A stretch of 64,000 nucleotides of DNA, from contig JAFGGO010000074.1 in the NCBI GenBank assembly GCA_016930515.1, positions 1 to 64,000 of the forward strand, read 5' to 3'. The position numbers were made by a program, and so were the translations under genes. Shown here piece by piece: positions 26,733 through 54,168 of this stretch (position 1 is its first letter; each line of letters begins with the position of its first letter). The stretch is from Promethearchaeota archaeon (GTDB lineage Archaea > Asgardarchaeota > Lokiarchaeia > Sigyniarchaeales > SOKP01). A model generated the notes under the pieces. That model saw only the letters and a program-made list of their open reading frames with translations, was not told the origin of the DNA and searched no databases.

Positions 26733-28115
26733 ATGAAAGAATTCGGTAGAAAGCTCGAAGACCTGATGAGAAAGATTCGAAAACTACCTTCCATAAATAA
26801 AGAAGAAATAATGGCCATAATCCAAGATCTCCAAAGAGCAATGCTTGAAGCAGATGTTAAGGTGGATTTAGTCTTCGAGATGACAGAAAACATCAAAAAA
26901 GCAGCAATGAATACCACACTCCAAAAAGCAAAACGCAAGGACTTCGTCATCAAGCTTGTCCACGATGAGTTGATACGCGTTTTAGGGGGGAAGAAAGCAC
27001 CAATAAGGATCAAGCCTGGTAAAAAGAATGTTATATTATTAGTTGGAATTCAAGGTTCTGGAAAAACAACAACAGTTGGGAAACTCGCCTACCATTTTAA
27101 AAGCAAGGGATTCAAGGTTGCAGCATTAACCACTGATACTTGGCGACCAGGTGCTTACGACCAGTTAGTACAACTCACGAAACAAATTGGTGTAGAAACT
27201 TATGGCAATCCTAATGAAAATAATGCACTAAAAATCGCCGTGAAAGAAACAAAAAAGGCCATCAACGATGGAAACGATATTGTCATTGTAGATACAGCTG
27301 GCAGGCACAAAGAGGAGAAAGAACTCATCGAAGAGATGAAAAAGATCGAAGCTGCCTTGAAACCAAATGAAGTAATACTCGTCATTGACGGAACATTGGG
27401 ACAACAAGCGTTTAACCAAGCCCAAGAATTTGCTAATGCAACCAATATCGGTTCTATTATAGTAACCAAACTCGATGGTACTGCTAAAGGGGGGGGTGCC
27501 CTTTCTGCTTGTGCTGCGACGAAAACTTTCATAAGATTTACGGGAATGGGCGAGAAAATAGAGGAATTAGAGGAATTTGACCCAACAGGGTTCGTGGGAA
27601 GCTTATTAGGTATTGCAAATCTGGAGGCGCTCGTTAAAAAGGTTCAGGATTCAGAAGCGATGGCAGATCCAGAGCTTCAAAAAAGAATGCTTCACGGGAA
27701 GTTTACGCTTGACGACCTTTGCACTCTACTCAAGAACATGAAAAAATTAGGGAAGATGAAAAATATTCTTGGAATGATGGGTGCGGGCAACATTCCCGAT
27801 GCTCTTAAAGATGATGCGGAAAAAAATATTCAAAAATGGGAAGTCATTTTAAATTCACTCACACAACAAGAAAAGGATAATCCCTTAATTATCAAAAAGG
27901 AAAGAAAAAGAAGAATACACAGGGGAGCAGGAGTAGAATACGCAGAAATCAATCGAATGCTAGATCAATACAAACAAATGAAAAAAATGATGAAATCTTT
28001 TGGTAAAATGGCGAAGAAAGGTAAGGGAGGAAAAGGTCCATTTCCAGGTAAGGGACTTCCGCCAGGTTTTGGAGGAAAAGGCTTAGGAGATCTATTTAAA
28101 AAATTTGGTGGATGA
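26733..28115 (+). CDS. srp54: Signal recognition particle protein SRP54
   Basis: GIQGSGKTT, DTAGRH, TKLDGTAKGGG, M domain. Confidence 0.96.
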   Translation: MKEFGRKLEDLMRKIRKLPSINKEEIMAIIQDLQRAMLEADVKVDLVFEMTENIKKAAMNTTLQKAKRKDFVIKLVHDELIRVLGGKKAPIRIKPGKKNVILLVGIQGSGKTTTVGKLAYHFKSKGFKVAALTTDTWRPGAYDQLVQLTKQIGVETYGNPNENNALKIAVKETKKAINDGNDIVIVDTAGRHKEEKELIEEMKKIEAALKPNEVILVIDGTLGQQAFNQAQEFANATNIGSIIVTKLDGTAKGGGALSACAATKTFIRFTGMGEKIEELEEFDPTGFVGSLLGIANLEALVKKVQDSEAMADPELQKRMLHGKFTLDDLCTLLKNMKKLGKMKNILGMMGAGNIPDALKDDAEKNIQKWEVILNSLTQQEKDNPLIIKKERKRRIHRGAGVEYAEINRMLDQYKQMKKMMKSFGKMAKKGKGGKGPFPGKGLPPGFGGKGLGDLFKKFGG

Positions 28116-39797: not shown

Positions 39798-41010
39798 CTA
39801 AGATTTTTTTTTTGATAAATATCTTATTTTGGTCATTAAGTCGCGCAGCTCAATGAGATCGCTATTTCTCTCAATATATTTCTTATTTGCACCCTCGGCT
39901 AATGGAAGAGAAATTATTTTATTACACTTGAGTGACACCATCTTTCCGAAATCTTCTTCTATGACTAATTTCATTGCTGCCAATCCAAATCTTAGCCCTA
40001 AAATTCTATCAAATGCGTTTGGGTGTCCTGCCCTCATCGTATGTCCCAATACGACGCTACGACACTCGTACTCGACATTATTTTTAGAAAATTCTTCCTT
40101 AAGATCTTTCCTTAAATTCAACTCTTCAATTAAAATCTGGGACATATTCAGGGCGGGCAAGACGGGATTTCCAAAAGCGTCTTTTGGCAGTTTATCAATT
40201 GTTTCTTGAGAAATGGTTTTAAAATCGTTTTTAAGCGATTCTGGATCGGGATATGCACCCTCCGAACATGCAATGATATGATATTTGTATCCTGCGTTTG
40301 CTCGCTTCTTGAGCACATCAAGTACATCTCTTTCCAAGGAAAAGGGGGTTTCAGGAATCAATATAATATCTGCACCGGTAGATAGACCACTATACAGGGT
40401 TAGAAAACCTGCGTCCCTCCCCATAATCTCTACGACAAATACTCGTTGATGTGAGCGGGCGGTTGTTGTCAGGTTATCCATGGAGTCAGATGCTAATTGT
40501 GTTCCACTCCAAAACCCGAATGTAAATTCGGTTCCTGCCAAATCGTTATCAATGGTTTTTGGACATCCTATAACTTTGGCACCGGTATATTTATGCATTG
40601 CATCCGCAACTCCGTTAGTATCGTCGCCCCCTATAACAATGAGGGCGTCTATACCGATTTCATCGAATTTATTTACCATCTCCTTTGCGACTTTTTCTTT
40701 AATCCTTTCTTTTTCCTCGTTTGATTTTGCCTTACTTACTTCTTTAAAAGGATTGGTCCTACTAGTGTATAATAAAGTTCCACCAATGGTATGTAAATCG
40801 TCGTGTTCTGCAATATTCAAGGGAATTGTTTCATTTTCCAAGAATCCCTTCCATCCCCTTAAAATACCCACGCATTCAATTCCAGCATCAAAAGCTTTTA
40901 ACATGATCCCATAAAGTACGGAATTGAGACCAGGGCAGTGTGCGGCAGCCGAGGAAAATCTCGAGCAAGACTCCGCCACCCGTTAGGATCCCTACTTTTT
41001 TAACAGCTAT
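39798..41010 (-). CDS. pfp: PPi-dependent 6-phosphofructokinase (PfkA family), two exons: 41010-40971 joined to 40939-39798, 393 aa
   Basis: Joined N-terminus (M)AVKKVGILTGGGDCPGLNSV; GGT.L.TSR, GGDDT (Asp, PPi type), PKTIDND, EIMGRDAG, LGHTMR. Confidence 0.9.
40940..40970 (-). other. Candidate BHB intron in pfk mRNA (31 nt)
   Basis: Insert TCTTGCTCGAGATTTTCCTCGGCTGCCGCAC splits Asp codon G/AC; central helix GCGG/CCGC, bulges AG^T and AC^A. Confidence 0.88.
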
Positions 41011-41126
41011 TTTTCATCGCCTTGTTTATTTTTGTTTCAATATTGACTTATTATAAAAATATCTATAAGAAAAATATTATTAATTAGCAAACTAATAAAT
41101 AAAATCTATAATACTATGATAAATCT

Positions 41127-41723
41127 TTATGAGATGTGAAAATCTTTTTCATTATTAGAAGCCTCGATGTTTTTCGGTTCAAATTCATAGGGGGTATCCT
41201 CTTGAGGGACGATGTAGCTTCCTCCTGAAAGATCTGTTATTTTGAGAGTGAATGGAAATTTTCCTTCCAGAGCTTTTTGTAAGTTAAGGATAATAAAATC
41301 TATTTCAGGGATTTGAGGGTCATCTTTCTGGAGATTATTTCTATATATTTTAACCGCACTTTCGAACCGCCTTAAAACCCCTTCTACATTTGTAAAATAG
41401 AAATCAGCATTGGGACCAGGCTCCATTACGAGCTCAAACTCGGGAATTTCAATTTTAGCAGTAGGTGCGCGATACAGTTTTGATTTTAAATCGTTTTCTT
41501 TATTAATTTTCATAGAAATTATTCCAGGTTTCATCTTTGAAGAAACGGGTACTACATCTTTACTAATATAACCACAATCACTGCATTCATATTTTAGAAT
41601 AAGAATTTGATCTCCATCGTGCGAATCGTAAATAGTTTTTTGGATTTTAATAACTCCACTTCGACAGGAGGGGCAATTGAACGAAAAATCGTCTTCCTCT
41701 CTCTCCTTGACATGATGCGACAT
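41127..41723 (-). CDS. ZPR1 zinc-finger domain protein
   Basis: CPSC...CSDCGY, IEIPE, PGP, TNVEGVL.RF, D.SGGS. Confidence 0.9.
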   Translation of the reverse strand: MSHHVKEREEDDFSFNCPSCRSGVIKIQKTIYDSHDGDQILILKYECSDCGYISKDVVPVSSKMKPGIISMKINKENDLKSKLYRAPTAKIEIPEFELVMEPGPNADFYFTNVEGVLRRFESAVKIYRNNLQKDDPQIPEIDFIILNLQKALEGKFPFTLKITDLSGGSYIVPQEDTPYEFEPKNIEASNNEKDFHIS

Positions 41724-51755: not shown

Positions 51756-52586
51756 TTAGTCTTCTTTAACGAGGTATTGCCATAAATCAAGGTCTTTACG
51801 CAATTTTTTGCCTTTTTCCATTGCTTTCTTGGTTAACATCTTGATTTCCTCAATCGAGAAAGTTGCCGCACCGCTTTTTTGAATCGAAGTTACTTTATTT
51901 TCGCTCACTGAAATAGTTATTCGTCCATCGCTAATGAGCTCTTCGGACAAATTAGGATCCAAGAAAATTGTATCGTCGATTTTTGCAAATGTAATAGCAA
52001 AGGGTAATTCGTTTACAATGTCTTTTCCGTTCATATATTTTCCTGTCCATTTTAATCCTTCTTCAGTAATCTCTCCTTCGGGAATGTGAGCGCTAATTAA
52101 GCTTGCTAGAGCACCTACACCACCACAATCTATGAGATTGCCTCCGTAATTCATAACATACATATCAACAAACAAGATATATACGGCTTCTTTTTCTTTA
52201 ATACAGAGCTTTTTCTTGGTTTGAACGCAATCTGCGTGTCGTATTCCTCTATCGACAACCCTAGCAAGTTCAATTGATTGTTCATTAGGTGGACCTCTTT
52301 CAAAGAGAGGTGACGCAATGGGTAATAACTCGGCCATAACCGTACAAACGCCTTCGTTAGGAGTATCTGGAAAAGGAGCACCTACTTCGTATTTTAATCC
52401 TGAAATTATCCTTGATTCACCTAAAGAAACATCTGAAGATCCTTCCGCAGATTTTATAAGATCTGCCTTGACTGAAAAGTCTCTATAATCCCATAAATCT
52501 CTTCCGTCAATTCTTTTATCCTTTCTTAAATTATCCGAAATATATTTACGCTCAATTGCGGAAATGACTCTTTTAACATTCTCCAT
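51756..52586 (-). CDS. rrp42: Exosome subunit Rrp42
   Basis: RIDGR, AEGS, PFPDTPNEG, ELARVVDRGIR. Confidence 0.95.
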   Translation of the reverse strand: MENVKRVISAIERKYISDNLRKDKRIDGRDLWDYRDFSVKADLIKSAEGSSDVSLGESRIISGLKYEVGAPFPDTPNEGVCTVMAELLPIASPLFERGPPNEQSIELARVVDRGIRHADCVQTKKKLCIKEKEAVYILFVDMYVMNYGGNLIDCGGVGALASLISAHIPEGEITEEGLKWTGKYMNGKDIVNELPFAITFAKIDDTIFLDPNLSEELISDGRITISVSENKVTSIQKSGAATFSIEEIKMLTKKAMEKGKKLRKDLDLWQYLVKED

Positions 52587-52587
52587 A

Positions 52588-53370
52588 TTATTCTTCTCCT
52601 CCGTTTTCGTTTGACTCTGGTTGAGCGGTCCCTTCTTGGATATCTAAATATTTTTTCTTCAAGGCGGTGACTTGCATGTCGTAAATCTTTTTAAGAGCTT
52701 CAGTTGCAAGATCCAAGGATGAATCGATTTCCTCCAATGTCATGTCTCCATCGAATTGCAACAAAGAAAGTTCGTTGTTAAACCACGTCATTGCACAAGG
52801 TAAATCGGCTTCACCCGCTTTGTCTTCTATTCCTGACAAATCAACGACCAACTCTCCATCAATCTTTCCGCAAGCTACACTGGTCACCAAGCTTTTCATA
52901 GGAACGCCTGCATCGGCTAGAGCAAGCGCTGCTACCGTGGTGCTAGCGCATCTGGTACCACCATCTGCGTCAATAACTTCAATAAAAACTTCAAAACTCG
53001 TTCCGGGATATAATTCGAGGAATAATACGGGTTCTAAACAATCAGAGATTATCATTGATATCTCCTTTTCCCGGCGACCAGGAGCTGGTCTTTTTCGCTC
53101 AAACACCGAAAAGGTAGTCATTCGATAGAACACCCGCAATATTCCCTTATCAGGTCTTGCTAGATGGTGGGGATGCACATCTCTTGGGCCATATACAGCA
53201 GCAAAAATTTTATTATTCCCCCATTCTAAGTATGCAGAACCGTCAGCATTTTTAACAACGCCAACTTCCATTTTAATTGGCCTTAGTTCGGTTTTATCTC
53301 TACCGTCGAGTCTTTTTCCATCTTCCCGAAATAACTTTTTCGGGTATTCATCATTAATTACTAATGGCAT
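52588..53370 (-). CDS. rrp41: Exosome subunit Rrp41
   Basis: RLDGR, ADGSAY, VYGPR, RREKEIS, ADGGTRCAS. Confidence 0.95.
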   Translation of the reverse strand: MPLVINDEYPKKLFREDGKRLDGRDKTELRPIKMEVGVVKNADGSAYLEWGNNKIFAAVYGPRDVHPHHLARPDKGILRVFYRMTTFSVFERKRPAPGRREKEISMIISDCLEPVLFLELYPGTSFEVFIEVIDADGGTRCASTTVAALALADAGVPMKSLVTSVACGKIDGELVVDLSGIEDKAGEADLPCAMTWFNNELSLLQFDGDMTLEEIDSSLDLATEALKKIYDMQVTALKKKYLDIQEGTAQPESNENGGEE

Positions 53371-54168
53371 TTAGTTCAAACCTCTGTTTTCTTTTTCATT
53401 TTTTAAATATTCTTGAATTCTATCAGTTAATCCAACCGTGTGTGCTTCCGTTGCAATTTTATTTATGGCTTCAATGAGTAATTGCTCAGATTCGAGATTC
53501 TCTCCTTTAATCCATATTCGTCCATTTTGCGTTACGAAGATGTTGCAATTTGTCATATTTTTAAGCATTTTAATCATAGATCCGCTCCTACCGATTACCC
53601 GAGGGATGGAGTTTGGTCCGATTGATATCACCGAACCCCCCATTTTTTGTCCTAAATATTTTCCTACGGTGGTTAATTCTGGACTATTTAAGCGATCAGC
53701 CGAAAGAACTTTTACTATCAAAACATCTCCAATATCATATTTTTCTGTTGAATCTTCGTCTCGTGGGTGATGACCTCCTCCCCTATCTCCCGATCTTCCA
53801 AACCTTCCCTTTTCTTTTTTTATAGTATTCTTGGGTTTGAGATGACCGAGATCTTTTGCGTTTATGTCTATTTTATATTTAACGGGATTTTTTTCAACAA
53901 CAATACCTAAAACTTTATCACCAGGGCGAGGCGTATAAAACCCTCTAAGTGGGATGACATTTACATAGTTTTTCCTTATTTGTTTTAAGCCAATAGATAA
54001 AGATACAATTTTTGTCTTGTCTTTGTTAAAAATAGCACTTCTTCCAGGTAAAAAATTTTCTATGTCATCAGTTAATACTTCACCAGGTACGACGATTTCT
54101 CTCGTACTCGTATCTCCTTCTTCGTCGAAATCGTCTTCGCCGTTCATATCAGGCTCTTCATCTTCCAT
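53371..54168 (-). CDS. rrp4: Exosome RNA-binding subunit Rrp4
   Basis: VVPGE, YTPRPGD S1 domain, KH domain PRVIGRSGSM, QNGRIW, EAHTVGLTDRI. Confidence 0.93.
   Translation of the reverse strand: MEDEEPDMNGEDDFDEEGDTSTREIVVPGEVLTDDIENFLPGRSAIFNKDKTKIVSLSIGLKQIRKNYVNVIPLRGFYTPRPGDKVLGIVVEKNPVKYKIDINAKDLGHLKPKNTIKKEKGRFGRSGDRGGGHHPRDEDSTEKYDIGDVLIVKVLSADRLNSPELTTVGKYLGQKMGGSVISIGPNSIPRVIGRSGSMIKMLKNMTNCNIFVTQNGRIWIKGENLESEQLLIEAINKIATEAHTVGLTDRIQEYLKNEKENRGLN

Follow-up and report, generated by a model that had tools for sequence, protein, structure and literature searches.

A candidate BHB intron within the active-site motif of the sole phosphofructokinase gene of an Asgard archaeon

Results

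A phosphofructokinase gene interrupted within its active-site motif

The window analyzed here is a 64,000-nucleotide stretch of a Promethearchaeota genome (G000). Its minus strand carries a gene of the phosphofructokinase (PFK) family in which a 31-nt insert lies between GGGD and CPGLN, that is, within the active-site motif. The earlier note, made from the letters alone, had placed the organism among Asgard-type archaea; this is borne out by the nearest public relatives, which are named Promethearchaeota MAGs, with one labelled Thorarchaeota, and Promethearchaeota belongs to the Asgard kingdom Promethearchaeati. The parts of the gene are as follows.

41008-41010, minus strand: ATA, aligned with the ATG start codon of relatives; a non-canonical start, or a lesion or variant
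40971-41010, minus strand: exon 1, ATA GCT GTT AAA AAA GTA GGG ATC CTA ACG GGT GGC GGA G, 13 codons and 1 nt
40940-40970, minus strand: candidate 31-nt BHB intron, 5' UCUUGCUCGAGAUUUUCCUCGGCUGCCGCAC 3', with motif-restoring BHB cut sites and same-site inserts in relatives, single-copy in the genome
39798-40939, minus strand: exon 2, AC followed by 379 codons and a stop, PFK domain with GGDDT and PKTIDND
40977-40979, minus strand: false GTG start of gene callers, product MAESCSRFSSAAAHCPGLN...

Exon 1 aligns codon for codon with the ATG ACA ATT AAA AAA GTG GGA ... of intronless relatives, and exon 2 resumes directly after the 31 nt (minus strand) as AC TGC CCT GGT CTC AAT. When the insert is kept, the frame from the ATA at 41010 encodes IAVKKVGILTGGGVLLEIFLGCRTLPWSQFRTLWDHVKSF and stops after 40 codons; the read-through translation with the intron retained is IAVKKVGILTGGGVLLEIF...KSF, then a stop. 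When the 31 nt are removed, the product has 393 amino acids, 13 from the intact codons of exon 1, one from the split codon GAC and 379 from exon 2, and the first 49 residues match Pfam PF00365 at positions 1-44 (E 4.4e-11). The unspliced ORF matches this profile at positions 9-276 only (E 2.5e-81), all from exon 2. The position, length and sequence that the earlier note had given for the insert are correct to the base, and its account of the frame, a stop after 40 codons or a 393-residue protein, holds as well, with the profile matched from its first position. It had also predicted that gene callers would start at GTG 40979 with a false N-terminus. The ORF from that GTG likewise encodes 393 amino acids, and NCBI nr contains exactly this false product among its called proteins.

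No PFK-family match other than the split gene occurs in the genome. PPi-dependent PFKs are distinguished by Asp at GGD(G/D) and Lys at (G/K)TIDND, and the GGDDT and PKTIDND of exon 2 would fit such an enzyme. NCBIfam assigns the protein to PFK_mixed / NF002872, a mixed ATP/PPi subfamily, and it also scores above the cut-off of the 'ATP-dependent' subfamily model. The name PPi-phosphofructokinase, used in the earlier note, is therefore supported by the signature and no further: PPi use is unproven, and which phosphoryl donor the enzyme takes is unsettled.

Evidence against an assembly artefact as the source of the insert comes from an independent Logan assembly of SRR13394437, in which the encoded protein is identical and 222 nt again separate the upstream gene from Met26 (compared at the protein level, with the DNA unread). 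A second Logan contig encodes a 94%-identical protein.

The start codon

A TGA at 41014-41016 (minus strand) lies in frame two codons upstream of the ATA, and between this TGA and the codons for GILTGGG there is no in-frame ATG, GTG or TTG. Five nucleotides upstream of the ATA is an SD-like GGCGAT, with AGTGAT at the same place in relatives; the SD role is inferred. Since the SD-like sequence stands at the usual distance, the ATA may act as a weak start. Without a canonical in-frame start, the gene may be only weakly expressed or recently damaged, and we cannot exclude that the ATA is a fresh lesion or a strain variant.

An ATG at 41015-41017 (minus strand) lies in another frame, where it begins an ORF of 5 codons (MKNSC and a stop); it would come into frame if the A5 run were one A shorter. 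In an intronless ortholog (G021, L009) the ATG position holds ACG, and a GTG five codons downstream could serve. The start codons of pfk in the family, which include ATG, TTG, ATA and ACG, seem unusually variable.

Geometry and folding of the BHB motif

The insert and the exon sequence on either side of it can be folded into the following elements.

40933-40981, minus strand: whole hBHBh' motif, made up of outer helix, central helix, two bulges and inner hairpin
40977-40981 with 40933-40938, minus strand: outer exon-exon helix, GGGUG / C(U)GCCC, 5 pairs and one bulged U
40973-40976 with 40942-40945, minus strand: 4-bp central helix, GCGG (exon 1) / CCGC (3' end of the intron)
40970-40972 and 40939-40941, minus strand: 3-nt bulges, AGU and ACA
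40946-40969, minus strand: inner hairpin, with a C-G pair beside the first bulge, then a small internal loop, then a stem of 6 pairs that contains one bulged U

By an established rule, the cut sites of archaeal EndA lie after the second nucleotide of each bulge (Marck & Grosjean 2003, as cited in PMC11291895). In silico, the junction predicted by this rule, GGAG/AC, is the sole junction that restores both the frame and the motif GGGDCPGLN. The geometry is thus the one claimed in the earlier note, in which the cuts AG^T and AC^A coincide with the motif-restoring junction. With a bulged U in the outer helix and an internal loop in the inner one, the BHB is relaxed and not of textbook form.

Minimum-energy folding placed the BHB-constrained fold of the window genome 1.7 kcal/mol above the minimum, and the BHB conformer was never the minimum-energy fold among the copies folded (1.7-8.2 kcal/mol above). 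The folding-energy z-score is -0.95, which is unremarkable. Folding energy alone is unconvincing, and the case for a BHB intron rests on sequence comparison. RNAalifold favors a different helix, GGCGG/CUGCC, that is invariant, pairs exon with exon (40973-40977 with 40934-40938, minus strand) and rivals the BHB central helix; this could be relevant to folding kinetics or a mere reflection of codon constraints.

Distribution and covariation of the insert among relatives

The comparison used the exon 2 protein as query, a search that is blind to the intron, in 41 related genomes, 40 of which have one PFK ortholog each. Upstream of these matches, with no intron pattern used, 6 of 25 family genomes have an insert of 31-32 nt at the codon that is split in the window; it is absent from all five other genomes of the genus, and the public MAG LW60_4 has a same-site insert too. 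A pattern search then recovered the insert at this site (site 1) in 22 genomes out of 154 from the order. Within the host's own Promethearchaeota family, of which 135 genomes were sampled, a looser pattern recovered it in at least 28, and the reversed-pattern control gave no match there. Outside the family there were 3 matches in 265 genomes, which look like chance, as the reversed-pattern control also gave 3. All these counts are lower bounds, since the search pattern fixes part of the exon sequence.

Across 18 distinct copies the central helix is paired without exception (100%), the 5 pairs of the outer helix h and the 9 pairs of the inner helix h' are each 92% paired, and 93.9% of all cells are paired. 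Six inner-helix pairs show compensatory change with both sides altered. None of 500 shuffled controls reached the observed pairing, and sliding the 3' partners by 1-3 columns lowered it to 28-54%. The covariation is seen in a 7-sequence version of the alignment as well as in the 18-copy set. The earlier note had proposed aligning Asgard pfk orthologs for presence or absence of the insert and for covariation of its stems, and both were found. In two genomes, G092 (C97:529-580) and G144 (C2:84730-84781), GTGG/CCAC takes the place of the GCGG/CCGY seen in the central helix of the other copies; the exon change is synonymous and is compensated inside the intron. The junction codons GGC GGA GAC TGC occur in all 7 intron-bearing genes that were found without a pattern and in 0 of 19 intronless family genes; synonymous exon sites are thus under selection only where the intron is present.

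A second insert in the same gene and the history of the first

Some relatives carry a second BHB intron in the same gene, at IGG/DDT, which in G015 and G018 is a 30-nt insert of the form GGT GGA G^...^AC GAT.

L023:2307-2373 and L025:2304-2370, minus strand: site-2 intron, in frame and carrying TAG/TAA stops

It is predicted to form an outer helix of 5 bp (TATCG/CGATA), the central helix GUGG/CUGA and a hairpin of 10 bp; the bulges are AGU/AGA, or AGA/AAA in the variant of G052. We count it in at least 10 related genomes, and its hairpin varies in a compensatory way, for example ATAG/CTAT in some and ATGG/CCAT in others; the window genome is without it. The exon context GGNGGAG^AC is common to both pfk sites; the intron sequences are unrelated.

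On the PFK tree the site-1 intron requires 4-5 changes, at least 3 of which are forced by strongly supported branches. The copy in the window is about 71% identical to its closest sampled counterpart, that of G054 (a count from the sequences), and has compensated pairs of its own, so it is old in its lineage and not a recent import. In a sliding-window identity comparison, the first 60-90 nt of the gene were slightly closer to intron-bearing alleles (84%) than to those of genus mates (76-78%), an excess that BHB-imposed synonymous sites can explain, and no clear recombination patch was seen around the intron. Most likely the intron is old in the family, with repeated loss or lateral spread since; many precise losses and an older lateral spread are equally open as its history.

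Splicing enzymes encoded in the genome

The genome encodes two EndA paralogs of about 200 amino acids (contig C83, 8.5 kb, and contig C30, 14.4 kb), each with PF01974 and PF02778 (N- and C-terminal domains). One has the catalytic Tyr, His and Lys, and the other lacks the His, as read from their sequences, a pair that corresponds to the alpha/beta arrangement. Asgard archaea are reported to have an (alpha-beta)2 EndA with a broad-specificity L1 loop (PMC5829648). A search for RtcB (PF01139) gave no match in the 94%-complete G000 assembly. As RtcB is present in 10 of 12 relatives, its absence here is probably due to incompleteness.

Discussion

A proposed splicing pathway for pfk mRNA

We propose that the pre-mRNA folds so that GCGG of exon 1 pairs with CCGC of the intron, forming a 4-bp central helix flanked by the two 3-nt bulges (AGU, ACA), the inner hairpin and the exon-exon outer helix. 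A heterotetramer-type EndA made of alpha and beta would cut after the second base of each bulge, and an RNA ligase, which in relatives would be RtcB, would join GGUGGCGGAG to ACUGCCCUGG and probably circularize the 31-nt intron. The spliced mRNA would encode the 393-residue PFK with an intact GILTGGGDCPGLN motif and the predicted N-terminal peptide VGILTGGGDCPGLNSVLYGIMLK. Without splicing, only the 40-residue peptide or an N-terminally false protein would be possible. Cleavage, ligation, circularization and constitutive splicing are all inferred, with no RNA-level evidence.

With these reservations, we think it very likely that 40940-40970 is a genuine BHB intron in the sole PFK gene and that the mRNA is spliced as predicted, a judgement that draws on the observed sequence, geometry, conservation, covariation, selection and presence of EndA. 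Since the only PFK gene is split within its active-site motif, its mRNA almost certainly needs splicing. The core inference of the earlier note, that tRNA-splicing enzymes remove a BHB intron from this mRNA, has strong comparative support and is joined by the EndA alpha and beta genes; a demonstration at the RNA level is lacking.

Alternative readings of the insert

The earlier note had gone further and suggested a post-transcriptional switch, in which conditional removal of the intron would tune PFK synthesis as IRE1 controls HAC1/XBP1. Active enzyme cannot be made from unspliced mRNA, the intron lies about 40 nt from the start codon, an arrangement in which splicing is inferred to compete with the first round of translation, and in Haloferax HVO_1309 a BHB intron of the 5' UTR affects expression (PMC7714728). 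However, the intron is missing from five genus mates and about 80% of the family, where PFK is equally conserved; it shows no conservation beyond the needs of the BHB fold; and no sensor or condition is known. An element this patchily distributed looks dispensable, which argues against an essential regulatory switch, and we consider regulation of this kind unlikely. Most likely, the intron is a tolerated element that is constitutively removed, and probably not a dedicated regulator.

A less favorable reading still is that the hairpin insert is junk that has inactivated the gene, making it a pseudogene or an incipient one. The broken frame, the ATA at the start-codon position and the false N-terminus of the called ORF could all be read this way. 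The gene itself does not look like one that is decaying. Compared with its intronless sister on the PFK tree (G003; SH-aLRT 98; 88% amino-acid identity), it has a dN of 0.073 with synonymous sites saturated, the G000 branch (dN 0.04) is much like that of the sister (0.03), and omega among genus mates is 0.035-0.053. The earlier note had listed other inactivating lesions among the findings that would refute an intron, and there are no further lesions in the 379 codons of exon 2. By these measures the gene is functional and under strong purifying selection. Together with the retention of the insert at one site in at least 28 genomes, with structure-preserving substitutions, and the lack of any other PFK gene in the genome, this leaves very little room for a pseudogene.

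Ribosomal bypassing of the 31 nt, of the kind known from T4 gene 60, has a superficial likeness to the gene 60 gap in its favor, in that a hairpin follows the GGA codon, but we give it practically no credence, as the take-off codon GGA has GUC and not a stop behind it, a matching GGA landing codon is absent at the 3' end of the gap, and conservation tracks BHB pairing, including exon-intron pairs that bypassing would not need.

Several other kinds of element were considered for the insert and rejected. A group I or group II intron or another RNA family has no Rfam match in the window at gathering thresholds, and 31 nt is far too short for one. An intein was likewise ruled out, as was a repeat or mobile element, with the intron and its motif single-copy in the genome and no homing-endonuclease-like gene flanking pfk.

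Relation to known introns and meaning of the pfk intron

Returning to the reading of the insert as a spliced BHB intron, the precedent named in the earlier note, crenarchaeal cbf5, agrees with the literature searched: cbf5 of Crenarchaeota is the only archaeal coding sequence reported to contain a BHB intron (PMC2738675; restated in 2020, PMC7714728). One haloarchaeal case in a 5' UTR is also known (PMC7714728). Work on Asgard introns concerns tRNA genes (PMC11291895; bioRxiv 10.64898/2026.10.13.758758), and the bioRxiv study mentions protein-coding genes only as neighbors. In the literature searched, we found no report of BHB introns in pfk or other Asgard mRNAs. With cbf5 the sole reported coding-sequence case for more than 20 years (PMC7714728, 2020), a second gene is of note.

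The cbf5 pre-mRNA intron of Crenarchaeota (Watanabe 2002; Yoshinari 2006; Yokobori 2009, PMC2738675) is the closest parallel. Both are short, BHB-like introns in an archaeal coding sequence, are associated with a hetero-oligomeric EndA in the host, have been lost in related lineages and were missed by gene callers. In contrast to cbf5, which encodes an RNA-modification enzyme (a pseudouridine synthase), pfk belongs to central metabolism and the host to the Asgard archaea (Promethearchaeota). The pfk introns are also much patchier, occurring in about 20% of one family, with up to two per gene in relatives, and splicing has been demonstrated experimentally only for cbf5.

The structure itself resembles the non-canonical tRNA introns of Asgard archaea and Thermoproteales (PMC11291895; bioRxiv 10.64898/2026.10.13.758758; Marck & Grosjean 2003). 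The shared features are the 4-bp helix, the two 3-nt bulges, a cut after the second bulge base and a size near 30 nt; in both, too, the flanking helices are relaxed, introns have been gained and lost repeatedly, and the enzymes are presumed to be the same. Unlike these, the pfk intron sits in an mRNA. The exon half of its motif must also encode Gly-Gly-Asp-Cys, so that synonymous sites bear the structural constraint. The 5' UTR intron of Haloferax volcanii HVO_1309 (PMC7714728) is likewise an EndA substrate in an mRNA, but it lies in the leader and leaves the frame uninterrupted, whereas the pfk intron breaks the coding sequence. The splicing of eukaryotic HAC1/XBP1 mRNA by IRE1 and RtcB is also comparable, as it is independent of the spliceosome, combines a protein endonuclease with RtcB-type ligation and changes the frame. 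It differs in its nuclease and RNA motif, which consists of paired stem-loops and not a BHB, and in being stress-regulated; the pfk intron shows no sign of regulation.

If pfk mRNA is spliced as we propose, the Asgard tRNA-intron expansion spills over into mRNAs, and the host gene would be a central glycolytic or gluconeogenic enzyme of Asgard archaea with up to two introns in relatives. Standard gene callers emit a false N-terminus at this locus, and metabolic reconstructions of these MAGs therefore rest on mis-called or 'truncated' genes. The intron also raises the question of how, with transcription and translation coupled, ribosomes are kept off the unspliced message when the intron is 40 nt from the start codon.

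A broader hypothesis and a genome-wide scan

We can also speculate that the pfk intron is one of a lineage-wide set of protein-free mini-introns in Asgard coding genes, which would be removed by tRNA-splicing enzymes and gained, lost or moved between similar GG-rich sites. This is a tentative proposal that we hold to be somewhat less probable than its opposite. If true, there would be an mRNA intron system in the closest prokaryotic relatives of eukaryotes, and translation would have to wait for RNA processing.

A genome-wide ab initio scan combined BHB geometry, an ORF-rescue test and constrained folding energy. It did not discriminate, as controls with cut sites displaced by 1 nt gave equal counts. 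One threshold excluded even the pfk intron, and the scan yields no count of mRNA introns. Its best matches in the window were rejected as ordinary gene junctions, in SRP54 / RNA methyltransferase / amidohydrolase and in the exosome operon.

Other features of the window

Scans of the 64-kb window for tRNAs and Rfam families gave no match. The neighbors of pfk are a gene for a ZPR1-type zinc-finger protein directly upstream (41127-41723, minus strand) and one for an acyl-CoA dehydrogenase. The window also holds an exosome operon with Rrp4-, Rrp41- and Rrp42-like genes (51756-54168, minus strand) and the gene for SRP54 (26733-28115, plus strand).
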